Positions 25,499-38,381 of a stretch of DNA of 38,381 nucleotides are shown here, piece after piece (position 1 is the stretch's first letter; every line of letters begins with the position of its first letter). Position numbers and translations under genes: made by a program. This DNA comes from an uncultured Bacilli bacterium (lineage in GTDB: Bacteria > Bacillota_I > Bacilli_A > RF39 > UBA660). The stretch lies in NCBI GenBank assembly GCA_947626425.1, contig CANQRX010000003.1, positions 1 to 38,381 on the forward strand. Reading direction: 5' to 3'. The notes beneath the pieces were generated by a model. That model had not been told where the DNA came from. It searched no databases and worked only from the letters and a program-made list of their open reading frames with translations.

Positions 25499-26185
25499 AT
25501 GGAAGCATTCAAAGAATTTCTTGTCGAAAAAAAAGTTTTTTGTCTTTGCGTTTTGCTTGGCATTATTTGTTTATCCTTAGGCTTTTTATATTTAAAAGAT
25601 GTCAGTGCGGAAGAATCCTTTCATTGCCCAGTAACGAGTGATAAAGTTTCAGAAAACAACGACGATGATATCGAAACTTTAGATATTATCCAAGTAGATA
25701 TAAAAGGGGCAGTGAAAGATCCTGGAGTCTATGTTTTAGATGAAGGTTCAGTCGTTAATGATTTAATATTAGCTGCTGGTGGCTTAACTAAAGACGCTGA
25801 CACAACCAACCTTAATTTAAGCAAAAAACTAGAAAACGAAATGGTTATAATTGTTTACACTAAAAAGGAAATGGAACAAAACGTTGAAAAAAACCTTACT
25901 AGTGATGCTGATATTTCGGAATCGTTAGGTAAAGATTCCATAATTGAGTCCGATAGTGAATCAAGTTCTAACAATACCACTTCCAAAACTACTAAAAAAG
26001 TTAATCTAAATACTGCTACCTTAGAAGAATTAACCACATTGCCGGGAATAGGAGAGGCCAAAGCTAAAAGTATAATTCAATATCGAAAAACTTGTGGAAA
26101 TTTTAAAGTCATCGAAGATATAAAAAACATTTCAGGTATAGGCGATTCAGTTTATGCTAAACTTGAAAAATATATCACCGTTTAA
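25499..26185 (+). CDS. comEA: Competence DNA receptor ComEA
   Basis: N-terminal TM, VDIKGAVKDPGVY (SLBB), VNLNTATLEELTTLPGIGEAKA and ISGIG (HhH). Confidence 0.95.
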   Translation: MEAFKEFLVEKKVFCLCVLLGIICLSLGFLYLKDVSAEESFHCPVTSDKVSENNDDDIETLDIIQVDIKGAVKDPGVYVLDEGSVVNDLILAAGGLTKDADTTNLNLSKKLENEMVIIVYTKKEMEQNVEKNLTSDADISESLGKDSIIESDSESSSNNTTSKTTKKVNLNTATLEELTTLPGIGEAKAKSIIQYRKTCGNFKVIEDIKNISGIGDSVYAKLEKYITV

Positions 26186-28199
26186 ATGGCTTATCTTTAT
26201 TTTAATAATTTTTGCTATATTTAGATTGATTATGGTTAGTAAAGAAACTAGCAAAATCTCTAATAATGTAACAAGCTTAAGTGGTAAATTAATTGCTAAG
26301 AGTATCGATGGAAATTTGTTAAGTGGAACAATTATTACTAAGGAAAAAGAAAAAGTAAATTTCTATTATTACTTGAAAACGGAACAAGAGCAAAAACTAT
26401 TAAACAATATGGGATTTGGAGATGTTCTCTATTTAAAAGGGAATATCTCTTTACCTTTAGATGAAGTAATATTTAATACCTTTTCATTTAAAAAATATTT
26501 ATTTAATCATCGCATCTTTAAAATAATGAATGTTAATAATTTAAACTATAAACCCACTAAAAATATTTTGTATTGGTTAAAAAATAAAATATTGAATTAC
26601 TTAGATAAAATTGACAATAAGCATTATTTAAAAGCATTATTACTAGGTGAGAAAAAAGCTGTTGACTATGAACTACTTTCCCATAATGGAATTAGTCATC
26701 TTTTGGCCGTTTCAGGAATGCATATTGCCATCTTTATTGATTTTTTTTATCATTTTTTTTATAAAAAACATCGTAAACATTCATTGCTTTTAATAGCAAT
26801 CCTTTGGTTTTATACATTTTTAGTAGGATTTACCATTTCGATTGTAAGAAGTGTATTAAATTTTACAATTATTACTTTCCTAAGTATGTTTAATTTAAAA
26901 ATTACAACTATCAAAAGTTTTATTATAACTTCTTTAATTATTATTATTAAAAACCCTTTGTATTTATTTGATGCAAGCTTTTTATATTCTTTCTTAATTA
27001 CTTTAGGACTAATTTTATCTCCTTCTTATCAAAAACAAAAAATGCTTAAAATAAGTTTGTTAACCTTCTTTTTAAGTGCAGGCCTAACTTGTTATTTTAA
27101 CTATGAGATTAATTTTTTAGCTATCTTTTTTAATATAATTGCCACTATTTTAATAGCTAATATTCTTTATCCTTTTGCTATAATGTGTTTATTTTTACCA
27201 TTTTTAATAAAGATTTTTAATTTTTTATTTAATTCCTTTTTAATGCTTAATAAAGCAATAAGTAAAGTGTCATTTGGAGTAATCGTTATTTCTAAGTACC
27301 CATATATTATCTGGGTCATTTATTATTTTATACTATTTTATTATTTAATAAAAAAGCAAAAGCTCAATTTTTATTTAGGATTATACTTATTAATTTTAGC
27401 TATTATTCCGTATTTTTCCCAAAAAGCTATTGTAACCTTTTTGGATGTTGGCCAAGGTGATGCCATAGCCTTTATTTCGCCCAACAAAAAGGAAGCATTT
27501 TTAATTGATACAGGTGGTAAGCAAAGCTTTTTTAAAGAAAGTTGGGAACAAAGGAAACAGGTTAATTATCAAGCTTTAAATATTGCCACTTATTTTAAAA
27601 GTGAAGGGGTAAGTAGTATTTTTGTTATAACGAGTCATGGTGACTATGACCATCTTGGAAATTTAATTGACCTAAGTAATTATATTCGTATTAATTTTGT
27701 CGTTTTAAATGAAAATAAAATGATTGCGAAAGAACAAGAAATAAGTTCTAAATTGCCTTTAAAAAAATTGGAAAATGTTTTATTTAAATATTTTAAAGTA
27801 AAACAGTTAAATCCTTTACTTAATCTAGACGACGAAAATGATGCAAGTTTAGTTTTAAAAATAACAAACGGATATTTATCATTTTTGATGATGGGAGATG
27901 CTCCCCAAAAAGTGGAAGCAAAAATTTTAAATAAAGTTGGCAACGTTGATTTTATTAAATTAGGACACCATGGTTCTAATACGAGTAGTGACCCGTATTT
28001 TTTAGCTAAAATTAACCCCCAATATGCTTTTATTTCGGCGGGGAAAAATAATCGTTATCATCATCCTCACCAAGAAACAATAGATACTTTAACAAAATTA
28101 AAAATTCCTTATTATAATACTCAAGTAAATCATTCCATTAAAATTATTTTTCAAAAAGATAGCTATCATATTAAGCCATTATCTGATACAATACAGTAA
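26154..28199 (+). CDS. comEC: DNA uptake channel ComEC
   Basis: SHLLAVSGMHI, FLDVGQGDA, SHGDYDHLG, KLGHHGS, NRYHHPH. Confidence 0.95.
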   Translation: MLNLKNISPFKWLIFILIIFAIFRLIMVSKETSKISNNVTSLSGKLIAKSIDGNLLSGTIITKEKEKVNFYYYLKTEQEQKLLNNMGFGDVLYLKGNISLPLDEVIFNTFSFKKYLFNHRIFKIMNVNNLNYKPTKNILYWLKNKILNYLDKIDNKHYLKALLLGEKKAVDYELLSHNGISHLLAVSGMHIAIFIDFFYHFFYKKHRKHSLLLIAILWFYTFLVGFTISIVRSVLNFTIITFLSMFNLKITTIKSFIITSLIIIIKNPLYLFDASFLYSFLITLGLILSPSYQKQKMLKISLLTFFLSAGLTCYFNYEINFLAIFFNIIATILIANILYPFAIMCLFLPFLIKIFNFLFNSFLMLNKAISKVSFGVIVISKYPYIIWVIYYFILFYYLIKKQKLNFYLGLYLLILAIIPYFSQKAIVTFLDVGQGDAIAFISPNKKEAFLIDTGGKQSFFKESWEQRKQVNYQALNIATYFKSEGVSSIFVITSHGDYDHLGNLIDLSNYIRINFVVLNENKMIAKEQEISSKLPLKKLENVLFKYFKVKQLNPLLNLDDENDASLVLKITNGYLSFLMMGDAPQKVEAKILNKVGNVDFIKLGHHGSNTSSDPYFLAKINPQYAFISAGKNNRYHHPHQETIDTLTKLKIPYYNTQVNHSIKIIFQKDSYHIKPLSDTIQ

Positions 28200-28215: not shown

Positions 28216-29160
28216 ATGAAAGTATTACTAATCGAAACTGATTCCAAAATTTTATTAGATGAAAAATTAAGTTCAATAATTAAAGGTGATAATAATGTTT
28301 TGATTTATAACTATTTAAATACGAATTTAAATGAAATTATAGAAGAAGCTTCATACGTATCAATGTTTGGCGAATTAAAATGGATTATCGTTAAAAATGC
28401 CGATTTTTTTGGTAATGGCAAAATTAGTGAGAAGGAAACTAAAATGTTAAGCGATTATTTAAATCATCCTTATGAATTAACTAATTTAATTTTTACAACT
28501 TATCAAAAAATAGATAATCGCAAGGCCATTTGTAAAGAGTTTAAAAAATTTAATTGTATTATCTCCCTTAAAACACCGAAAGGATATGAATTAACTAATA
28601 ATGTAAAAAACTTAATTAAACAAAAAGGTTATATAGTTAGTGATGATGCGATTAAATATATTATTGATGCCTGTATAAATAATTGGGATTTAATTTATAA
28701 TGAGATTTCTAAATTTGATTTAATTTTCCTAAAAAATCAAAAAATAACTTTAACTGAAATTAAAGAAGTTATTTGTTCTGCTATTGAAGATAATGATTTT
28801 AAATTTATCGACAATTTTATAAAAAAAGATGCTATTAAAAGTTGGACAGCTATTAATGACTATATTATAAAAAAAACTGATCCAATAAAGTTAATAAATT
28901 TATTAGTTAGAGAATATCGAATGCTTTTAATATCTAAAATAATGGCCGAACAAAAATATAGTTTAAGTGACATTGGAAAAGAATTAAGCGTTGTCGATTG
29001 GCAATTAGATAAAATAAAAAGAAACGCATCTTTATATCATAAAGACGATTTAAAAGAAATTTTAATAAAATTAGCTAAATTAGATTATTTAATTAAATCC
29101 GGAAAAAAAGATAAATGGTTAGCTTTTGAAGAGTTTTTTGTTGAACAAATGGAATTTTAA
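28216..29160 (+). CDS. holA: DNA polymerase III delta subunit
   Basis: IIEEASYVSMFG, KIDNRK, LDYLIKSGK; canonical position after comEC. Confidence 0.88.
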   Translation: MKVLLIETDSKILLDEKLSSIIKGDNNVLIYNYLNTNLNEIIEEASYVSMFGELKWIIVKNADFFGNGKISEKETKMLSDYLNHPYELTNLIFTTYQKIDNRKAICKEFKKFNCIISLKTPKGYELTNNVKNLIKQKGYIVSDDAIKYIIDACINNWDLIYNEISKFDLIFLKNQKITLTEIKEVICSAIEDNDFKFIDNFIKKDAIKSWTAINDYIIKKTDPIKLINLLVREYRMLLISKIMAEQKYSLSDIGKELSVVDWQLDKIKRNASLYHKDDLKEILIKLAKLDYLIKSGKKDKWLAFEEFFVEQMEF

Positions 29161-29232: not shown

Positions 29233-29261
29233 TTGACACATTAATAGTCATATGATAATAT
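29233..29261 (+). promoter_or_regulatory. Sigma-A promoter of candidate ncRNA 2
   Basis: TTGACA-N17-TAATAT with TG at 29253-29254; predicted +1 at G29268. Confidence 0.78.
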
Positions 29262-29267
29262 AAATAT

Positions 29268-29668
29268 GTCATAAGGATATAGAATATATGTCTAAAAGTG
29301 TTATATGAAATGGTTATTTTGTATAACGATATAGTAAAATATTTTATAGACTTGATGATGATGTTTTCTTTAATATTTTGATATTGAAGAAGATAAAAAA
29401 GTAATTTTATTGTTCAAATCCTTTAATTTTGGCGATTAATTGTTCGTCGTAATGGCTATAATAATCATAGCTAGGTGTGCACCGTTTTTGGATATTAAAG
29501 GATTCTGAAAGTGAGAAAGTGACTCATTTTAAATAATCTTTAATTAGATTGATGATAAAAAATAAACTCGGGTATTTATTTGAAATTAGCTACTTCAATG
29601 ATACTTTAGAAAAATCTTGAATATTATAGGATATTTTGCAGAGAAGGTGATTATAATCTCTGTTTTTT
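29268..29668 (+). ncRNA. Candidate structured ncRNA 2 (~400 nt, family not recognised)
   Basis: Strong promoter, about 11 helices including a multibranch domain, terminator, no ORF of 60 aa or more in the track. Confidence 0.68.
29638..29668 (+). terminator. Intrinsic terminator of candidate ncRNA 2
   Basis: GCAGAGA-N12-TCTCTGT followed by a T run. Confidence 0.72.
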
Positions 29669-29698
29669 GTATTATGTATTAATCAACTGCTTTTAATT

Positions 29699-29722
29699 AA
29701 AAAAGAGTTGGCAATCAACTCT
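29699..29722 (-). terminator. Terminator of the minus-strand three-gene operon
   Basis: AGAGTTG-GCAAT-CAACTCT with an A run on the left, directly after the stop codon. Confidence 0.78.
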
Positions 29723-30079
29723 CTAAAATAAATCATTTAAATCATTTAAATTTTCATTTTTTTCTTCTAATGTTTCTATACCTTCAGAAATGTCACTTTC
29801 TTCACTACTATTTTCGTCATCAGATTCATTTATATCAAAATCCGAATAGTTATCTTCAAAAATGTCATCATTAATTTCAGTTTCATCATCCTCGTCGTCA
29901 TCACCAGTATCAGGATAATGATCTTCTAATGAATCAGTTAAAACATTAATTCCATTTTCATTGAAATAACGAAAAGTTTCTTTAAGGTCTTCTGGTAAGG
30001 ATTCATCAATTATAAATTTTCCATCTTGGTCTATAAAATTTGCATAAACCTTTTTTGCAGAATCACTAAGTTTAATCAT
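29723..30079 (-). CDS. Highly acidic hypothetical protein
   Basis: 118 aa; about 45-aa folded N-terminus followed by a D/E-rich low-complexity tail; RBS AAGGA. Confidence 0.75.
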   Translation of the reverse strand: MIKLSDSAKKVYANFIDQDGKFIIDESLPEDLKETFRYFNENGINVLTDSLEDHYPDTGDDDEDDETEINDDIFEDNYSDFDINESDDENSSEESDISEGIETLEEKNENLNDLNDLF

Positions 30080-30095
30080 AATTTTTTAATTATCC

Positions 30096-30395
30096 TTATT
30101 TTTTATCTTTATTTACGGCATCAACAAAATTTGCGGCAGCTATATCAACAAAGCGATATGCATCACAATAATCTTCAATATTGTTTGTTATATTTGTAAT
30201 AGCTTGTTTATAAAACTTTTTCGCTTTATTTCCATTCCAATATGGACCATCAGTGTCACCATCCATCATAGCTTTAACATTTGCACTTAATTCTCTCATT
30301 TCTTTAGCGAGACTAGTTAAAGTAGAATTCATTTCTATTAATTTTGTTTTTGCCTTTTGACTACCTTTAACACCACTTTTTGAATTTGCACTCAT
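30096..30395 (-). CDS. WXG100-like protein
   Basis: 99 aa, helix-turn-helix pattern with central W53-N-G55 followed by KAKKF; RBS AAGGAGGT. Confidence 0.68.
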   Translation of the reverse strand: MSANSKSGVKGSQKAKTKLIEMNSTLTSLAKEMRELSANVKAMMDGDTDGPYWNGNKAKKFYKQAITNITNNIEDYCDAYRFVDIAAANFVDAVNKDKK

Positions 30396-30432
30396 AGATT
30401 ATAACCTCCTTTTTTATTTTGATTTAAATGAA

Positions 30433-30882
30433 TTAACTTCTATATGAATCAACATCAGCTTTTAATGAATCATAATCAGATTGTAAATCGTTATATTTTT
30501 GAGTCAATTGTTCAACAGCTTCTTCTAAATTTCTAAAAGCAGCTCTACCTTCGTCATAGGTAAAAGATTCTTGTAAAAGTTTTTTCTTTTTTTCAGTACC
30601 ACGAGCTTGTCCAGTACAATGTTTTGAAGCTTTCTGAAAGTTTTTTTTCAATGCAGGTTCATTGATATATTTTGTGAATCCAGATAACTGAGAAGACAAT
30701 TGATCAAAAAGTTCAATGATTTTATTATAATTAGAATTTATAGCATTATAATAAGTCTTAGCAGCAGAATCAAAAGTAATATCATTTACATTAACTTTGC
30801 TATTCATTGCTATGATATAGCCTTTAGCAGTAGCACCGTTTGGTGCAGTTATTAAATCTGAATGTAACCCTTCTAAATTCAT
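30433..30882 (-). CDS. Helical/coiled-coil hypothetical protein
   Basis: 149 aa, heptad-rich C-terminus, no signal peptide; RBS AAGGAGG. Confidence 0.75.
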   Translation of the reverse strand: MNLEGLHSDLITAPNGATAKGYIIAMNSKVNVNDITFDSAAKTYYNAINSNYNKIIELFDQLSSQLSGFTKYINEPALKKNFQKASKHCTGQARGTEKKKKLLQESFTYDEGRAAFRNLEEAVEQLTQKYNDLQSDYDSLKADVDSYRS

Positions 30883-31134: not shown

Positions 31135-31782
31135 ATGAAATATGCAAGTCAAAAGAAAAAAAGATATATATATTTTACAATTAAAAGACTGTTTGACATT
31201 ATTTGTAGTTTAGTAGGAATTATTTTTTTAATTCCTTTGACAATAGTAATCAAAATTGCCTATATTTGTACAGGTGATTTTAATAGTATTTTTTTTAGAC
31301 AAGTACGATTAGGGAAAAATGGCAAAATTATTAAAATTTTTAAATATCGTACAATGGTACCTAATGCGGAAGAAATTCTAGAAAAATGGCTAAAAGAAAA
31401 TCCCGAAAAAAGAGAGGAGTATTTAAAAGATCGGAAAATTGACAAAGACCCAAGAATAACTAAATTAGGCAATATTTTAAGAAAGTCTTCGCTAGATGAA
31501 TTTCCTCAATTTATTAATATTTTAATTGGAGATATGTCCTTGATTGGACCTCGTCCTGTTGTTCCTGATGAAGCTGAAAATTATGGCAAACGAAAAATGA
31601 AATTTTTATCAATACGCCCAGGTTTAACCGGTTATTGGGCTAGTAATGGCCGTAATAATATATCCTATAAAGAAAGAATTAAAATGGAACTTTATTATAT
31701 TGATCATTGTAGCATTTTATTAGATATTCAAATTATTTTTGATACCGTTTTTGCCGTTATAAAAAAAGATGGTGCTAAGTAA
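31135..31782 (+). CDS. Priming phosphoglycosyl transferase (bacterial sugar transferase)
   Basis: KRLFDI, FKYRTM, DPRITKLG, SLDEFPQF, GDMSLIGPRP, PGLTGYW. Confidence 0.95.
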   Translation: MKYASQKKKRYIYFTIKRLFDIICSLVGIIFLIPLTIVIKIAYICTGDFNSIFFRQVRLGKNGKIIKIFKYRTMVPNAEEILEKWLKENPEKREEYLKDRKIDKDPRITKLGNILRKSSLDEFPQFINILIGDMSLIGPRPVVPDEAENYGKRKMKFLSIRPGLTGYWASNGRNNISYKERIKMELYYIDHCSILLDIQIIFDTVFAVIKKDGAK

Positions 31783-31808
31783 AGAATCTTTTATATGGGA
31801 GGTTTAAG

Positions 31809-32585
31809 ATGAAAAAAATAAAAATAATAGTCGCGACTCATAAAAAATATCAAATGCCCAAAGAAAAAATGTATTTACCTCTTCAGGTTGGAGCTGAGGG
31901 AAAAGAAGACTTAGGTTATACTAAGGATAATTCGGGGGAAAATATTTCTTTAAAGAATCCTTTTTTTTGTGAATTAACTGGTTTATATTGGGTTTATAAA
32001 AATTTAGAGGCCGATTATATTGGCTTAGTTCACTACCGTCGTTATTTTCGAGCTAAGAAAAAGGCTAAAAATCCTTTCCAATCCATTTTAAAGCAAAAAG
32101 AATTAGAAAAGTATTTACAAGACTATGATATAATTGTTCCTAAAAAGCGAAAATATTATATCGAAACTATTTATAACCATTACAAACATACAATGCATAT
32201 CGAAACGCTTGATGAAGCCATTGCCGTTATAAATGACTTATATCCAGAGTATAAAATGGCTCTTGATAAAGTAATGAAGAAAAGAAGTATGCATGCTTTT
32301 AATATGTTTATCATGAAAAAAGAATACTTTGATGAATATTGTAAGTGGCTTTTTGATATCCTATTTAATTTAGAAAAAAGAATGGGAAAAGTAAAATATG
32401 ATAGTTTTCATGCCCGTTTTTATGGTAGAATAAGTGAGAGACTCTTAGATGTTTGGTTAACATACCATAAATATGAATATAAAGAATTACCATTTATTTA
32501 TATGGAAAAAATAAATTGGTCCAAAAAAATAGGAGGATTTTTAAAAGCCAAATTTTTAGGGAAAAAATATGATCAAAGCTTTTAG
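31809..32585 (+). CDS. DUF4422 family glycosyltransferase (WciB-like galactofuranosyltransferase)
   Basis: IVATHK, DNSGENISLKNPFFCELTGLYW, GLVHYRRYF, NMFIM, GRISERL. Confidence 0.88.
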   Translation: MKKIKIIVATHKKYQMPKEKMYLPLQVGAEGKEDLGYTKDNSGENISLKNPFFCELTGLYWVYKNLEADYIGLVHYRRYFRAKKKAKNPFQSILKQKELEKYLQDYDIIVPKKRKYYIETIYNHYKHTMHIETLDEAIAVINDLYPEYKMALDKVMKKRSMHAFNMFIMKKEYFDEYCKWLFDILFNLEKRMGKVKYDSFHARFYGRISERLLDVWLTYHKYEYKELPFIYMEKINWSKKIGGFLKAKFLGKKYDQSF

Positions 32586-32597
32586 GGAGGAGAAGTT

Positions 32598-33497
32598 ATG
32601 AAATTAGCAACTACTGACATTTTTAAGAAACTTTATTTAAAAAATTCAAAATTAGTTTTACTTCAAGATAAAGATTTAAAAAAACTTCAAAAAAAGCTAT
32701 TAATAATGGCTCAAGATATTATTGAAGTTTTAGAAAGTATTAATGCTAATTATCATTTAACAGGGGGGACGTGCTTAGGGGCAATTAGGCATCAAGGTTT
32801 TATCCCATGGGATGATGATATGGATATTGATCTTGCCAGAAAAGATGTTGCTAATTTTTTAAAAACTTTTACCCAAAAATATGGTGATAAATACTATATT
32901 CATACTCCTTACAATAAAGACGGTTTTAGCCTGCCATCAATTCAAATTCGCCTTAAAAATACTCTATATGTTGGTGTAAATGATTATAAAGAAGAAGAAA
33001 GTGGGATTCCGATTGATATTGCCATTATTGAAAATACTTATGATTTTAAAATATTAAGAAAAATTCATGGTATTGGTAGCATGGCCTTAGGCCTTATTGT
33101 TAGTTGCCGAAAGTTTGCTGCTTATCGTAATTTTTATTTAGAATTGGTATCTGATTTAAAAGAAGAAACCAAAATATTTAAAAAAAAGATTTTAATCGGG
33201 CGCTTGTTTTCCTTTTTTTCTTTAGCTCATTGGATTAGAATTTATGATAAGTGGAATAGTCGTTGTCATAATAACGCGTCTAAGTTTGTTGTTGTACCAA
33301 CTGGTCGTAAAGGCTTTTTTGGGGAAATTTACGACCGTGATAAATTTTATGAAAGTACCAAGGCCAATTTTGAAAATTATTCGTGGAATGTTCCCAAAGA
33401 TTATGATTATTATTTAACTAAAATGTATGATGATTATATGAAACTTCCAGCAAAAAGGGAAGTTGAACGTCACGCTTTAATAAAATTTAAGTTGTAA
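32598..33497 (+). CDS. LicD family phosphotransferase
   Basis: GGTCLGAIRHQGFIPWDDDMDI; YLTKMYDDYMKLP. Confidence 0.92.
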   Translation: MKLATTDIFKKLYLKNSKLVLLQDKDLKKLQKKLLIMAQDIIEVLESINANYHLTGGTCLGAIRHQGFIPWDDDMDIDLARKDVANFLKTFTQKYGDKYYIHTPYNKDGFSLPSIQIRLKNTLYVGVNDYKEEESGIPIDIAIIENTYDFKILRKIHGIGSMALGLIVSCRKFAAYRNFYLELVSDLKEETKIFKKKILIGRLFSFFSLAHWIRIYDKWNSRCHNNASKFVVVPTGRKGFFGEIYDRDKFYESTKANFENYSWNVPKDYDYYLTKMYDDYMKLPAKREVERHALIKFKL

Positions 33498-33504
33498 GAA
33501 GGAT

Positions 33505-34551
33505 GTGAAAAAAATGGAATTAATTAGTATAATTATGCCTGTTTATAATTCCAAAAAGTATCTTAAAGATGCCATTTTAAGTATTCAAAATCAAACGTAT
33601 TCTAATTTTGAATTAATTGCTGTTGATGATGGTTCAACTGACAATAGCTTAGAAATTTTAAAGAAATTTGCAAGTACTGATAAACGAATCAAAGTTTTTC
33701 ATAAAGAAAATAAAGGAATTAGTAACACAAGAAATTATGGCTTAGCTAAATCGCAAGGAGATTATATAACCTTTATTGATAATGATGACGAATATTTGCC
33801 TAATCTTTTAAAAGACAACTTAGAATTAATTACGAAATATGATGCCGACATGGTTAAATTTCAAAAAGTTAAATTTTACGTTGATAATAACTCTGATTTA
33901 GTAATTCCCAAAACTAAAGAAAAAGTCTTATTTTTTCAAAATGACGAAATTTGGCAAAATTTTGCAACCCTTTACCATTATGGTGGAACTATTTGGAATA
34001 TTATGTATAAAGCTGATTTTCTAAAAAAAAATAACATCACTTTTTGTGAAAAATCACGTCATGAAATAGAAGACCATCGCTTTAATTTAGATTGTTATTA
34101 TCATTTACAAAAAATTGTTTTAAATCCGCAATGTTACTACGTTTGGAAATTGCGAACTGCCCATTCTACAAGTGGTAAATTTATTTATGAACGTTTTTTA
34201 AATATTGAAAAAGAAGGAAATGATTTATACAAATTTTTAAAAACGAAAAACATTGGTCTTGATTGGACAAAGGTTAAAGTAAGCTACTTAATAAATATTT
34301 TAGTGGTTATGAATTATGATAATTCCGGCTTTAATCATCGTTTGTTTATTAAACATTTAAAAGAATTAAAACAACTTGATTTGTTTGCACGGAAGTGTAC
34401 TAAAAAAGAATACGCTTATTTGAAAGAAAATGAATCCTTAATGCGAATGCTTGCTTGTTTCTTTTTTGACAAAAAGTGTTATAATACTGTTTATGGACTT
34501 TCTAAATTAAAATTAAGAAAAGACATCAAAAAAAACAATCGTCGTTTTTAA
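33505..34551 (+). CDS. GT2 family glycosyltransferase
   Basis: ISIIMPVYN, VDDGSTD, RNYGL, FIDNDD. Confidence 0.92.
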   Translation: MKKMELISIIMPVYNSKKYLKDAILSIQNQTYSNFELIAVDDGSTDNSLEILKKFASTDKRIKVFHKENKGISNTRNYGLAKSQGDYITFIDNDDEYLPNLLKDNLELITKYDADMVKFQKVKFYVDNNSDLVIPKTKEKVLFFQNDEIWQNFATLYHYGGTIWNIMYKADFLKKNNITFCEKSRHEIEDHRFNLDCYYHLQKIVLNPQCYYVWKLRTAHSTSGKFIYERFLNIEKEGNDLYKFLKTKNIGLDWTKVKVSYLINILVVMNYDNSGFNHRLFIKHLKELKQLDLFARKCTKKEYAYLKENESLMRMLACFFFDKKCYNTVYGLSKLKLRKDIKKNNRRF

Positions 34552-34566
34552 GAAAGGGGAGGACCT

Positions 34567-35937
34567 ATGATTTATTTAATATTAATAATCGTTGCCATAC
34601 TTTTAGTCCTTTATGGAAAATATATTTATAATAATTACGGGAACTCTATACCTTTCATCTTAATTTTTTTTATATATGCGGCATGGGCCTTAGTTTCAAT
34701 TATTTATATTGATGGGGGAACCTATATTATTGAACAAGACCGAACTTCAACATTTACTGGAGCTTCTTTAAGATTTTTAATCGTTATGTTACCATTTTTT
34801 TATTTTTTACCAAAAATGGTAAGTCAGTCTTTACAAAAGAAAATGAAACCCGTTAAAAATTCTTTCGGGCGCTCTTTGGAGTTAAAAAAGTGTCTAACCT
34901 TTATTGCTTATGGCGTTTTGATTTATTTATACTTAAACCTGTTTATTTCAGGAATTCCAATGTTTAACAAGCAAATAACTAATTTTAATTTTTATATTAC
35001 TTATTCTAAATTACCATTTGCTAGCACCATTCAAGCAGCAACAATTAATTTTTTCTTACTTTTTTTTGGTGTTATCTTTGCTAGTAATGAACCGTTAAAA
35101 GAAAAAAAGAAATCTTTTCTTTACTATTTATTATTAGTAATTTATCGAATTTTATTTGGGGAAAAATTCTATCCTTTTTTACTTTATTCATTCTTATTTT
35201 TCTTACCAACTTTAATGAACTTTTTTAAGAAGGCAAAAAACAAAGGCTTTTTTACTAAAAAAACCATCATTATTGGGTCAATTTGTTTTTTAATTCTTTT
35301 AGGAGCTAGTCTTTTAAAATATACCATTGATGATAACCCAAACTATAAAAGTCCCGTTGATCATTTATTTTCTCGAATTTTTTCTTTGCAATCCCATATG
35401 TTTTATGGATATGATAAATATTTAATGGAACATAATATGGGCTGGACTCCTAATTTTGAAGAATTAAAAACTGAATTACTTGCCGGTTTAAAAAAGACTG
35501 ATAAATTTGCTAAAAACATTGGTTTAACCAAAATTATGACTATTGTTTCCCCAAAAGAAATAGTTGACCGTTATTTAAATGATAATACGCGATTTTATGG
35601 AGGTTATTGGACTTTATCAATCGGGTGCTTTGGTTATGTTTTAACCGCCTTTTATTCAATTTTAGTCGCCGCCATTATTGCTTATTTTTCAAAAGTACTT
35701 GCTTTAGCGATTAAGAAAAAAGATTATATTTTATTATTTTTAAGTACAAATTGTTATTATATTTTCTTCACTTATTTTAATGAAGCAAACTACAGTTTTA
35801 TCTTTTCTTATCGAATGTTTTTATTTACGTTCTTAATTATTTTCTATGAAAAAATAATGGATAGTAAAGTCGTATTAAAAATTAGTGAAGCCCTTAATGA
35901 AAAATTAAAAATTGTTAATAAGGTAGTAGGTGATTAA
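34567..35937 (+). CDS. Polytopic membrane protein, probable Wzy polymerase
   Basis: About 10-11 TM segments with a large late extracytoplasmic loop; located between glycosyltransferases and the flippase. Confidence 0.6.
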   Translation: MIYLILIIVAILLVLYGKYIYNNYGNSIPFILIFFIYAAWALVSIIYIDGGTYIIEQDRTSTFTGASLRFLIVMLPFFYFLPKMVSQSLQKKMKPVKNSFGRSLELKKCLTFIAYGVLIYLYLNLFISGIPMFNKQITNFNFYITYSKLPFASTIQAATINFFLLFFGVIFASNEPLKEKKKSFLYYLLLVIYRILFGEKFYPFLLYSFLFFLPTLMNFFKKAKNKGFFTKKTIIIGSICFLILLGASLLKYTIDDNPNYKSPVDHLFSRIFSLQSHMFYGYDKYLMEHNMGWTPNFEELKTELLAGLKKTDKFAKNIGLTKIMTIVSPKEIVDRYLNDNTRFYGGYWTLSIGCFGYVLTAFYSILVAAIIAYFSKVLALAIKKKDYILLFLSTNCYYIFFTYFNEANYSFIFSYRMFLFTFLIIFYEKIMDSKVVLKISEALNEKLKIVNKVVGD

Positions 35938-37330
35938 AGTGAGTTTAAAAAAAGGATTAATGTATGTTTTTTTAGCTAATTTACTTAATTTGTGTATTAG
36001 CTTAATTAAAGGCTTTGTTTTACCCAAATATTTATCTATTGAAGCTTATGCGATGATTCAAAGTTATTTACTTTATGTTTCCTACATTGGTTTATTACAC
36101 TTTGGATATTTAGATGGTTTATATTTAAAATATGGTGGTCAAAAATTTGAAAATATTGATGCTTTAGAAATTAATTTAGCCCGAGGAAATACCATTTTAC
36201 TGCAATTGTTGTTCACCATTCCAGCTATTGCTATTTCTTTAATTTTAAAAAATTATGTTTTGTTATTTTTTTCTTTAAGTATTTTACCTGTTAATATTGT
36301 AACTTTATATAAAAATTTGTTTCAAGCGACGGGTTTATTTAAAACTTACGGAAGACTTTTAAATGTCACAACATTGTTATCCTTTATAGGAACCTTGATT
36401 TTATTATTTTTCTTTCATCTGGAAAGTGCTTTTTATTATATTTTTATTTTAGTGTTTGTTGATTATTTAATTTGGATTTTACTTGAAATTAATTTATTCG
36501 AAAATTACAAAATACCATTTAAATTACAATTTTCTTTAAAAAATTTAGCTAAACACATTAAATCCGGTTTTGTTTTAATGCTTGGTAATTTTTCGTCAAT
36601 TATGATGACGAGTATGGACCGGTGGTTTATCAAAATTTTATTGACGGTTGAAGAGTTTGCTTATTATTCTTTTGCTGTTCGGGTCGAGAATTTAATTACG
36701 GTTTTTATTACCCCAGTTATAACGACAATGTATAATTATTTTTGTCAAACTAAAGATACCAAAAACATAAAAAACATTACCAAAACTTGTTTATTAGTTG
36801 GCTTATGCTTAATTGGCTGTGCTTTTCCAGTTAAATTTATATTAGAAACCTTTTTAACTAAATATTACGATTCTTCGGCGATTATTTTTCTTTTATTTTC
36901 AACTCAAGCTTTGTATTTAATTATTAAAGGAGTTTATGTTAATATTTATAAATCCCGAAAAGAGCAAAATAAGTATTTTAAACAATTAGTTTTAGTTATA
37001 ATAATTGGTTTTTTGTTGAATCTATTATTAATTAATATTTTTCACAACACCATCTGTGTAGCGTTAGCAACCTTAATTTCCGTTTTAATTTGGTTTGGCA
37101 TCTGTTTATTTTCTATTCCTGAAATTAGACTAGGCTTTAAAGAATTAATCGTTTTAGTAATTAGTTTAATTTTATATAATTTCTTAGGTTTTTATGTAAA
37201 TTCTTATCTAGGTTTTATTATTTATTATGGTTGTCTTTTAATGCTTTTAATAATTTTTATGAAAGATACTCTCATTCAATTTTTAAATATTATTAAAAGT
37301 TTGATTGTCAAAAAAGGAGTTAAACAATGA
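35930..37330 (+). CDS. wzx: Wzx-type oligosaccharide flippase
   Basis: FVLPKYLS, LLHFGYLDGLYLKYGG, SMDRWFI, YYSFA; 12-14 TM segments. Confidence 0.82.
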   Translation: MIKVSLKKGLMYVFLANLLNLCISLIKGFVLPKYLSIEAYAMIQSYLLYVSYIGLLHFGYLDGLYLKYGGQKFENIDALEINLARGNTILLQLLFTIPAIAISLILKNYVLLFFSLSILPVNIVTLYKNLFQATGLFKTYGRLLNVTTLLSFIGTLILLFFFHLESAFYYIFILVFVDYLIWILLEINLFENYKIPFKLQFSLKNLAKHIKSGFVLMLGNFSSIMMTSMDRWFIKILLTVEEFAYYSFAVRVENLITVFITPVITTMYNYFCQTKDTKNIKNITKTCLLVGLCLIGCAFPVKFILETFLTKYYDSSAIIFLLFSTQALYLIIKGVYVNIYKSRKEQNKYFKQLVLVIIIGFLLNLLLINIFHNTICVALATLISVLIWFGICLFSIPEIRLGFKELIVLVISLILYNFLGFYVNSYLGFIIYYGCLLMLLIIFMKDTLIQFLNIIKSLIVKKGVKQ

Positions 37331-38381
37331 AAATGCTTTTAAAAAAAATTTATACCTCAATCCTCTTTCGATTGTTTTGGTTACTACCGTTGCAAGATAA
37401 AGTGCTTTTTTCTAGTTTTTCAGGGAAAAAATATGGGGACAATCCTAAATTTATTTCTTTAAAATTAAGAGAAAAAGACCCTAAAATTAAACAAGTTTGG
37501 CTTTATAAATATGAAAAATTTCCCGATTTAGATGCCAATATTTTACAAGTCAAATGGGGAAGTATCGCAATGATTTATCATTTAGCAACATCCAAAATTT
37601 GGGTTGATTCTCATACTAAACCGCTTTGGGTTAAAAAACGTCCTGGCCAATTTTATTTAGAAACATGGCATGGTGGATTAGGAATGAAAAAAATTGAAGG
37701 CGATGCGATTGATAAATTAGATAAAGATGTCGTAAAGAGAATTAAACACAATTCTGCACTTGTTGATTTATTAATTAGTAATTGTCGGTGGTTAACTAAA
37801 ATTTATCAAAGGGCCTTTTTTTATGATGGGGAAATACTTGAATGTGGTTATCCGAAAAATGACATTTTGTTTCAAAAAGAATGTCATGAAGATATAAGGC
37901 AAAAAGTTTTAAAATATTATCAATTAAAAACTAATACAAAGATATTTTTTTATGCCCCGACTTTTCGTGAGAAAACAGAAAATCTTAATTATCATTTAGA
38001 TTTAGATGAATTAATTAAATTTTTAAGAAAAGAATATGGTAAGGAATGGGTTTTATTTTACCGTTTGCATCCTTTATTAATGAAAGAAGAAAATATTTTT
38101 AAATATCAGAATAAAAATATTTATGATGTAACAATGTATCCTGATATGCAAGAATTAATCATTGCTAGTGATATGATGATGACTGATTATTCTAGTGGTA
38201 TTTTTGATTTTGCCATGCTTTATAAACCGGCTTTTATATATGCTTATGACTTAAAAGAATACGAAAAAGAACGCGGATTATATTTCAATTTATATGATAT
38301 GCCTTTTTTAGTTGCCGAAGATTTTGAACAATTACTTCAAAATATTAAAGATTTTGATGAACAAAAATATCAAAAAAAGTT
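37327..38381 (+). CDS. CDP-glycerol glycerophosphotransferase (TagF-like), truncated by the window edge
   Basis: ATGA overlap with wzx; YGDNPKFI, ETWHGG, GYPKND, YAPTFRE, RLHP, TDYSS; not in the ORF track. Confidence 0.9.
   Translation, partial: MKMLLKKIYTSILFRLFWLLPLQDKVLFSSFSGKKYGDNPKFISLKLREKDPKIKQVWLYKYEKFPDLDANILQVKWGSIAMIYHLATSKIWVDSHTKPLWVKKRPGQFYLETWHGGLGMKKIEGDAIDKLDKDVVKRIKHNSALVDLLISNCRWLTKIYQRAFFYDGEILECGYPKNDILFQKECHEDIRQKVLKYYQLKTNTKIFFYAPTFREKTENLNYHLDLDELIKFLRKEYGKEWVLFYRLHPLLMKEENIFKYQNKNIYDVTMYPDMQELIIASDMMMTDYSSGIFDFAMLYKPAFIYAYDLKEYEKERGLYFNLYDMPFLVAEDFEQLLQNIKDFDEQKYQKK

Follow-up and report, generated by a model that had tools for sequence, protein, structure and literature searches.

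We describe a gene for a structured RNA in a 38,381-nt stretch of DNA from an uncultured Bacilli bacterium (GTDB lineage RF39; UBA660), namely positions 1 to 38,381 of contig CANQRX010000003.1 in GenBank assembly GCA_947626425.1, hereafter called the window. As judged from its sequence features, the segment 29233-29669 on the plus strand is a free-standing gene for a structured noncoding RNA (ncRNA) of about 400 nt, and it very probably represents a real new ncRNA gene family whose members share a promoter, a terminator and a core of ~170 nt in the 3' half. In five of the loci found, the RNA lies between three small-protein genes and essC, a gene of type VII secretion. We believe that the transcript acts in trans as a compactly folded, possibly dimeric RNA that works with a clade-specific EssC module, a reading to which we assign a probability of roughly 0.55.

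The window is contig C3 of a 1.29-Mb genome in 109 contigs (87% complete, ~26% G+C), and the RNA gene lies inside a 562-nt gap between holA (28216-29160, +), which follows comEC (26154-28199, +; both genes are Pfam-confirmed), and three small minus-strand genes (29723-30882). An earlier note on this DNA, made from the letters alone, had recognised a near-consensus promoter and a terminator with no convincing open reading frame (ORF) between them, and all three observations hold. The promoter (29233-29261, +) consists of a -35 element TTGACA (29233-38), a 17-nt spacer ending in TGA and a -10 element TAATAT (29256-61), giving 10 of 12 matches plus a TG extension. All eight homologues whose 5' end lies on the contig keep its layout of TTGAC, a TGn-containing spacer and a -10 hexamer. 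By sequence it is a strong promoter of the sigma-70 type with an extended -10 element, and transcription would start near a conserved uGUCAUAAG. The 3' end (29619-29669, +), drawn from the minimum free energy (MFE) structure and from comparison, comprises a linker hairpin (29619-25/29630-36) and an intrinsic terminator with a stem at 29638-44/29657-63, the loop AGGUGAUUAUAA and a U-run. This terminator is present in 9/9 homologues and its loop holds UGAUUA; a simple scan of the window for terminators did not include it (29638-63) among its listed results. It stands back to back with the minus-strand terminator of the three small genes (29702-29724, -), which has a 9-pair stem with three G-C pairs and a T-run. 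With regard to coding capacity, the plus strand of the RNA region holds no ORF of more than 32 aa under genetic code 11 or code 4, the longest ORFs across the members range from 14 to 66 aa (66 aa in genome G287) with none common to the members, and in every one of the nine homologues each of the six frames of the conserved core is interrupted by one stop or more. In four DNA runs of one sample, unitigs of low depth connect holA with the RNA, and the RNA with the gene next to it, which encodes an acidic protein, and this argues that the arrangement in the window is not a scaffolding artefact, with the proviso that the runs stem from the same sample and are not independent. The runs listed as holding the locus are four DNA runs (one study, rabbit gut) and no RNA run. 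The earlier description of the element as lying downstream of holA is right about the place and not about its meaning: holA sits on other contigs in G003 and G036, and the adjacency is therefore incidental. The neighbours that matter are the three small minus-strand genes and, in other genomes, essC.

Homologues proved to be few. A BLASTN search against 60 relatives returned mostly short A+T-rich chance matches, only the partial ones in G036 and G003 being real, and a third homologue was reached by BLASTN from one of these two. A scan for a pattern of three conserved blocks, which covered 185,579 prokaryote species with one genome each, yielded 15 stretches, six of which are real by nhmmer (three of them already known); the other nine, including stretches in Polaribacter and Pectobacterium, were rejected as chance. 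With R1, a covariance model that represents the core by 168 positions and 25 pairs, the RNA was detected in five of 47 genomes of the window's genus (G000, which is the window's own genome, G002, G003, G014 and G036) and in four of 31 genomes of a second genus (G271, G272, G287 with 89.7 bits and G293 with a weak 38 bits). Read by eye, the G293 sequence has its own promoter, a UGAUUAA terminator loop, a UUAAUC loop, the palindrome CAAUGUACAUUG and helices B and D (described below), and on these features it is counted as a divergent member. The second genus belongs to the same family, because G271 is G635 by identical coordinates. The pattern TGAGARANNGACTCAN{25,55}AAACTCG had no match in 200 other genomes of the family (one per genus), and a relaxed pattern had none in a sample of 400 other genomes of the family. 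Scans of viral contigs gave one and zero stretches, none of them real, and all ten stretches from a scan of JGI metagenomes were rejected as chance. As far as searched, the predicted RNA family is confined to nine genomes of two genera of small-genome uncultured gut Bacilli.

The window RNA folds better than expected from its composition. The plus strand from 29262 to 29668 reaches an MFE of -90.2 kcal/mol, compared with -71.6 +/- 4.8 kcal/mol for 100 dinucleotide shuffles, none of which was as good (z about -3.85, range -3.7 to -3.9). The same holds for all nine homologues, with z between -1.9 and -6.8 against dinucleotide shuffles and at most three of 60 shuffles as good. The nine RNAs are 312-488 nt long, the shortest being that of G003 (312 nt). 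Their 5' half is variable: in the window it spans 29268-29395 (+; MFE structure) and comprises a long 5' hairpin (~29268-29359) and a 15-bp hairpin (29362-76/29381-95), and every homologue has one to three long A+U-rich hairpins of unrelated sequence in this place. Further 3', a long-range helix termed P2 pairs 29417-27 with 29494-504 (29417-29504, +; RNAduplex) and encloses a hairpin at 29430-49, helix A and a palindrome. An equivalent of P2 was found by RNAduplex in 9/9 members, with 6-14 bp and a sequence that differs in every member, and its 3' strand ends 0-5 nt before helix B. Helix A (29453-59/29467-73; 29453-29473, +), defined by comparison, has the loop AAUAAUC with a conserved UAAUC, and its stem occurs as GGCU/AGCC, GGUU/AACU, AACC/GGUU, GUUA/UAAC and GUCA/UGAC. 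It is followed by the palindrome GGUGUGCACC (29474-29483, +), which is self-complementary in 9/9 members if G-U pairs are allowed. Helix B (29509-29529, +), likewise from comparison, reads AAGUGAG, loop AAAGUGA and CUCAUUU; the form UGAG....GACUCA is kept in eight of nine members, with GGAG in G287, and the three inner pairs are invariant. Helix C (29534-29551, +) is a hairpin of variable sequence and length, which forms in 9/9 members from segments of 14-44 nt that are unrelated in sequence. The region 29564-29613 (+) then contains the conserved AAACUCG, helix D (29570-76/29600-06 and 29580-84/29594-98), its 9-nt loop AUUAGCUAC with the palindrome UAGCUA, and UUUAGAAAA. Among the members helix D has about 11 bp and its loop is laid out as NN-UAGCUA-N in most, and the order after helix D is UUUAGAAAA, a variable linker hairpin, UUUUUAG and the terminator.

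Much of the structure sketched in the earlier note agrees with this comparative picture. Its 15-bp hairpin is found exactly in the MFE structure, its perfect 11-bp helix is P2, which recurs at the same place with a different sequence in 9/9 members, and its hairpins at 29453-73, 29508-30, 29535-50 and 29581-97 correspond to the covarying helix A, to helix B, to the variable hairpin C and to the distal part of helix D, while the hairpin at 29614-32 coincides roughly with the linker hairpin (29619-36). Other elements did not survive. The hairpin proposed at 29561-80 is not conserved and would compete for bases with the proximal stem of helix D (29570-76/29600-06), which covaries, the helix 29405-14/29551-60 that was to close a multibranch domain has a 3' partner region of only 2-13 nt in the other members, and the inner pairs drawn for the 5' hairpin give way in the MFE structure to 29299-311/29316-328. 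The hairpin at 29430-49 and the 5' hairpin region as such are plausible from the window sequence alone; the 5' hairpin region varies between species, so that neither drawing of its pairs is open to comparison.

Our comparative analyses further indicate that the proposed helices are under selection. MAFFT alignments (A2-A4) misplaced helix A and one sequence, and we instead used a covariance-model alignment of nine rows fitted to R1 (A5, with P2 left out) together with an alignment-free swap test, added because the model, too, dealt poorly with helix A. In A5, 85.5% of the cells pair, compared with 73.2% after shuffling, and 13 of the 25 pairs show changes on both sides, compared with a shuffled mean of 7.2, a value of 13 being reached in none of 500 shuffles. 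The covariation score was 0.417 against 0.175 in the shuffled alignments (0/500 reach the observed value) and 0.07-0.10 when the partners were slid. Helix D contributes strongly, with 9 of its 12 pairs changing on both sides, and helix B is mostly invariant and hence uninformative on selection either way. In the swap test, the 5' strand region of each RNA was paired with the 3' strand region of every RNA and the result was compared with 20000 permutations. Cognate strands paired more stably than non-cognate ones for P2 (-14.1 vs -10.4 kcal/mol; 1/20000 permutations reach the cognate mean), helix A (-3.6 vs -1.3 kcal/mol; 0/20000), helix D (-7.1 vs -3.5 kcal/mol; 0/20000) and the terminator (-8.6 vs -5.5 kcal/mol; 0/20000). 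In these predicted helices, compensatory changes exceed the controls.

With respect to known RNAs, cmscan with 4227 Rfam 15 models at gathering scores gave no match in the window, so that the models of OLE, ROOL, GOLLD and raiA, and also HEARO, leave the RNA unmatched. At E<=10 the segment 29100-29800 matched only mir-500 (E 6) and DUF805b (E 4.6, outside the RNA), and seven homologous loci had no Rfam match at E<=0.1. The size of the RNA had already been noted to resemble RNase P RNA or tmRNA without the signature motifs of either, and both of these RNAs are indeed encoded on other contigs of the genome: rnpB on C87 (C87:4-235, 187 bits) with a piece on C74 (6032-6097), two contig ends that mark an assembly break inside rnpB, and tmRNA on C4 (123 bits). 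A small SRP RNA lies on C1 (54.2 bits), the large SRP model having no match in the genome, and a 6S-like RNA at C20:46-225 scores 44.6 bits, just under the gathering score of 46.4. The designation of the element as a large, ornate ncRNA of unknown class is thus upheld by the missing Rfam match, by folding that beats shuffled sequence and by covarying homologues. In the literature searched on type VII secretion, EssC or WXG100 proteins together with noncoding or structured RNA, no linked RNA is described, and the main text of a human-microbiome survey (PMC8040213) contains no mention of type VII, EssC, WXG, secretion or FtsK. By Rfam 15 and the literature searched, the predicted RNA constitutes a new structured family; an unnamed listing in the supplements of a paper is possible.

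The genomic setting of the RNA suggests a partner. In five loci an essC gene (1512-1522 aa) is adjacent to and divergent from the RNA, and in a sixth it lies 3.4 kb away. Where the arrangement is complete, the unit runs in the order trio of small-protein genes, RNA, essC and small ORF, and in the five loci the RNA fills a gap of ~570 nt between the trio and essC. By its match to the equivalog model TIGR03928 (927.4 bits for the protein on G000 contig C50 and 918.8 bits for that of locus L083, with a cut-off of 778.4) the large neighbour is EssC of a type VII secretion system of the T7SSb kind, and Pfam FtsK_SpoIIIE matches it at 1e-43. Directly after essC comes a conserved ORF of 85-88 aa (L124:1595-1849, -; L083:814-1071, -; L128:1131-1397, -), which has no Pfam or NCBIfam match and by eye resembles the small ubiquitin-like YukD/EsaB of T7SSb, an identity that we do not claim. 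No genes for EssB, EsaA or EssA were seen in the annotated flanks, and the genes beyond the unit are unrelated housekeeping genes that differ between genomes. The RNA follows one kind of EssC. In the window's genus, the EssC clade that is 60-61% identical to the query is restricted to G000, G002, G003 and G036, all of which hold the RNA, and none of ~19 genomes with only a 35-39% clade has it; the essC loci of the latter clade form compact operons that lack a large gap. Among 401 genomes sampled from the order there were 28 further essC loci, and only one of them, which is G271 itself, has the RNA. Moreover, G036 (contigs C7 and C66), G271, G272 and G287 have two EssC clades each (60% and 37% identity), and the RNA goes with the first kind only. 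Taken by itself, a functional tie of the RNA to the EssC module appears to us somewhat better than an even chance.

The trio itself, delimited by clustering flanking ORFs with BLASTP, consists of two helical paralogues (fam0) and an acidic protein (fam1), and it is adjacent to and convergent with the RNA in seven of nine genomes. In the window its first gene encodes a 149-aa coiled-coil protein, the long form of fam0 (30433-30882, -), which clusters by BLASTP with the second, a 99-aa protein predicted to form a helical hairpin with GPYWNG (W-x-G) at the turn (30096-30395, -; the short paralogue). The third gene (29723-30079, -) encodes the 118-aa acidic protein, made up of an N-terminal domain of ~45 aa, an acidic linker and the C-terminal LNDLNDLF, and has a homologue beside the RNA in seven of nine genomes. 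Across genomes the coiled-coil protein has 123-149 aa, its paralogue 94-140 aa with an invariant GPxWNG, and the acidic protein 100-118 aa. In G272 the two helical paralogues are fused into one protein of 236 aa that keeps a W-S-G motif (L083:6539-7249, -), and in G014 the trio on contig C4 (L088/L073) is tandemly duplicated (104, 95 and 124 aa; 104, 95 and 117+ aa) next to a single RNA copy, the contig ending exactly at the 5' end of the RNA.

Searches of Pfam, NCBIfam, PHROGs and PADLOC gave nothing significant for the trio proteins. The 149-aa paralogue has weak coiled-coil matches and, alone among the proteins, a weak match to the WXG100 model TIGR03930 (E 0.022, 14.9 bits), the acidic protein has no Pfam, NCBIfam or PADLOC family and two marginal PHROGs matches (E 0.095 and 0.13), and Pfam scans of ten members of the small-protein families brought up nothing relevant, WXG100 (PF06013) included. 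An AlphaFold2 model of the 99-aa protein (pLDDT 69.9) places one helix at residues 4-44, a turn with GPYWNG and a second helix at 56-98; Foldseek found no match to this model in the PDB at E<=0.001, and a PDB profile search for the small helical protein returned designed coiled coils only. The modelled protein is WXG100-like in shape, with a helical hairpin and a W-x-G turn, and has no profile match. The extreme C-terminus of the acidic protein, L(N/D)DLN(D/N)xF, is conserved in 8/8 sequences (alignment A8), and this octapeptide may be a signal for secretion or for docking to EssC. The fam1 family is small: a word search found two relatives, and of 1.84 billion representatives 77 matched an exhaustive fam1 profile search at E<=0.001, a set that comes without genomic context.

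How might such an RNA work? Loop A (UAAUCA) is complementary to the terminator loop (UGAUUA) over 5-8 bp in 9/9 members. The pair beside the invariant block is A-U in G000 and G271, U-A in G036, G287 and G293, and mismatched or out of register in the other four. In addition, the hexamer UAGCUA in the D loop is self-complementary in 9/9 members, the UAGCUG of G287 pairing via wobble. The palindrome after helix A is GUGUACAC in seven of nine members, GUGUGCAC in the window (with wobble) and AUGUACAU in G293, where both ends are changed; flanking bases lengthen the GUGUACAC-type palindrome to 10-12 nt in several members (8-12 nt overall), and few independent changes lie behind the conservation of these palindromes. 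We propose that the terminator loop UGAUUA would dock on loop A (UAAUCA) and tie the 3' end back to the core, and that the D-loop UAGCUA, perhaps together with GUGUACAC, would pair with the same element of a second molecule to give a symmetric homodimer. We rate the kissing contact between loop A and the terminator loop an even chance, and regard the homodimer as a tentative proposal against which the odds lie slightly. The folded particle would then act in trans with the module, most likely by binding or titrating one of the small proteins, or would otherwise set the output of the module. A plain antisense action is improbable, and trans-antisense pairing with the start regions of the trio and essC was rejected as a candidate, the duplex energies being alike for cognate and non-cognate partners (-20.7 and -20.3). 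A GGA loop of the CsrA type in helix B was likewise discarded, as the window and G036 have AAAGUGA there. A stronger version, in which a self-dimerising RNA is a component of a variant type VII module, binds EssC or the module's W-x-G and acidic proteins and governs, chaperones or travels with what is secreted, seems unlikely to us.

Several observations weigh against a trans-acting RNA that works with the EssC module. In the window's own genome, essC and its small ORF lie on C50 beside an RNase HII-family gene, with no RNA there. In G287 the RNA has no trio at its site and fam1 was not found in that genome; the RNA is bordered on its own by the pair of genes that enclose the complete unit in G271 and G272, with an EssC gene (46% identity) 3.4 kb away. 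The divergent RNA of G293 occurs in a genome that has no EssC at E<=1e-20. Given these three exceptions, the module may be dispensable for the action of the RNA, or their linkage may be a matter of history. The comparative evidence comes from only nine members of two related genera, which are not independent, and A5 is fitted to the model, which favours structure. The palindromes and kissing loops are mostly invariant, their complementarity may be a by-product of other conservation, and GUGUACAC could equally form a mini-hairpin of 2-4 bp with a GUAC loop. Moreover, the term WXG100-like refers to size, helical hairpin and W-x-G turn and to nothing else, and the transcript is predicted from the DNA, as are its ends and its abundance.

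Alternatively, the RNA could serve a function unconnected with type VII secretion, as another kind of regulator or as the RNA of a mobile or defence element, and be carried along in a variable region. This would fit its sporadic occurrence in about one tenth of the genomes of the two genera, a chromosomal position that varies between genomes, its presence in G287, where the trio is missing, and in G293, where EssC is missing, and the accessory genes found nearby in some loci, namely ToxN in G003 and a HerA-like ATPase in the second genus. It is quite unlikely in view of the strict co-occurrence with one EssC clade in the window's genus (4/4 holders against none of ~19 genomes with the other clade only) and of a trio adjacency that in seven of nine genomes persists at different chromosomal sites; nor do the annotated flanks contain an integrase, transposase or phage gene, or the viral contigs a true match. 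A further, improbable reading is a cis-acting element for antisense action or transcriptional interference, transcribed against the direction from the trio to essC, which would block read-through from the trio into essC or pair with the read-through transcript, the fold merely serving stability. The geometry invites this idea, as the RNA is convergent with the trio, divergent from essC and fills the gap between them in five loci, its terminator stands back to back with that of the trio, and the EssC loci of the other clade lack both gap and RNA. Such an element, however, would have no need of conserved loops, of a covarying multi-helix core or of palindromes, and the RNA persists, promoter and terminator included, where essC lies elsewhere (the window) and where trio and essC do not flank it (G287, G293). 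Its 5' domain, which is nearest to essC, is the least conserved part, and the RNA is predicted to pair with the start regions of adjoining genes no better in cognate than in non-cognate combinations.

That the minus strand is the functional one, as a structured leader or spacer of a trio-essC operon with riboswitch-like control of essC, we hold to be highly improbable. The region does lie between the trio and essC on their coding strand, and in the window the minus strand, too, is more stable than its shuffles (z -5.2), but its MFE is only -58.7 kcal/mol, and the plus strand has the lower MFE in 9/9 members (for example -88.6 vs -56.7). Furthermore, 94 of 687 predicted pairs (14%) are G-U and would become C-A on the opposite strand, the conserved promoter and U-tailed terminator are on the plus strand, the trio's own terminator precedes the region, and the window and G287 keep the element without essC downstream. 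It is just as remote that the locus encodes one or more small proteins with incidental hairpins, or a 6S, RNase P, transfer-messenger or SRP RNA diverged past recognition, for while short ORFs exist (<=32 aa in the window, <=66 aa in G287) and A+T-rich genomes can hide divergent RNAs from covariance models, no ORF is shared, the core is stopped in all frames and the known RNAs, a 6S-like one among them, are encoded elsewhere in the genome.

A trans-acting, compactly folded RNA tied to a protein module would have relatives in kind among the large bacterial RNAs. OLE (RF01071), found in Firmicutes, is likewise a large, ornate, stand-alone ncRNA. It is tied to a small set of dedicated protein genes, some encoding membrane proteins, and its partners are OapA/B/C. 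It is about 600 nt long and occurs in extremophiles, whereas the RNA described here is shorter (312-488 nt), has no sequence or structure match to OLE, is found in gut Bacilli with genomes of ~1 Mb and neighbours EssC and W-x-G proteins. ROOL (RF03087) and GOLLD (RF01998) are also ornate RNAs without an assigned function that occur sporadically in Firmicutes and relatives. According to a 2025 cryo-EM study (PMC12286853), OLE, ROOL and GOLLD form RNA-only dimers and cages. The study describes symmetric intermolecular kissing loops of OLE and GOLLD that are marked by palindrome-preserving covariation, an OLE homodimer held partly by such a loop with a covarying palindrome, and conserved loops of ROOL and GOLLD that act as intermolecular kissing loops and build homo-oligomers (PMC12286853); the dimer proposed here is, by comparison, inferred. 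Compared with ROOL and GOLLD, the present RNA is much smaller, lacks a cmscan match to either, does not occur in the viral contigs scanned and has defined partner genes. The dimerisation initiation site of HIV-1 has a 9-nt loop of two nucleotides, a six-base palindrome and one nucleotide, and the D loop has the same layout (NN-UAGCUA-N) in most members; the likeness concerns this one loop, organism, size and context being unrelated. Finally, the RNA travels with protein genes and combines a scaffold with a variable part, as do tracrRNA/crRNA, the omega RNA of IscB/TnpB (HEARO), the bridge RNA of IS110 and ToxI. It differs from these in that Cas, IscB/TnpB, recombinase and ToxN are absent at the locus, HEARO gives no match, the partners belong to secretion and no cognate complementarity links the variable 5' hairpins to the genes nearby.

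Large folded bacterial RNAs with no assigned function are few, and every one of them has led to new biology. The RNA described here is tractable, with clear ends, a ~170-nt core, helices that covary and candidate contacts, both tertiary and quaternary, that are open to mutation, and unlike ROOL and GOLLD it comes with a short list of possible partners: EssC, two helical proteins, an acidic protein and an ORF of ~86 aa. The association thereby offers an experimental handle on the function of the RNA and possibly on the control of a minimal T7SSb in gut Bacilli with reduced genomes. Should the RNA prove to be a partner in secretion, it would give bacterial protein-secretion systems their first structured RNA partner and would join the small group of ornate RNAs with symmetric assembly; should the linkage be mere linkage, a new structured RNA family, by Rfam 15 and the literature searched, would still be the result.

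Some further genes near these loci deserve mention. A HerA-like ATPase (DUF87, E 4e-21) is the constant neighbour of the module, or of the lone RNA, in the second genus (L081:5523-7349, -; L083:7385-7999, -; L108:1766-3166, -), and a relative with 42% identity lies beside a clade-II essC in G020 (L121). In G003, two genes downstream of essC on contig C8, a 168-aa ToxN (PF13958, E 2e-49; L122:8369-8872, -) points to a type III toxin-antitoxin system. Beyond the trio in the window, a polysaccharide-synthesis cluster starts (31135-38379, +), with a Bac_transf sugar transferase at 31135-31782 and a DUF4422 protein at 31809-32585.

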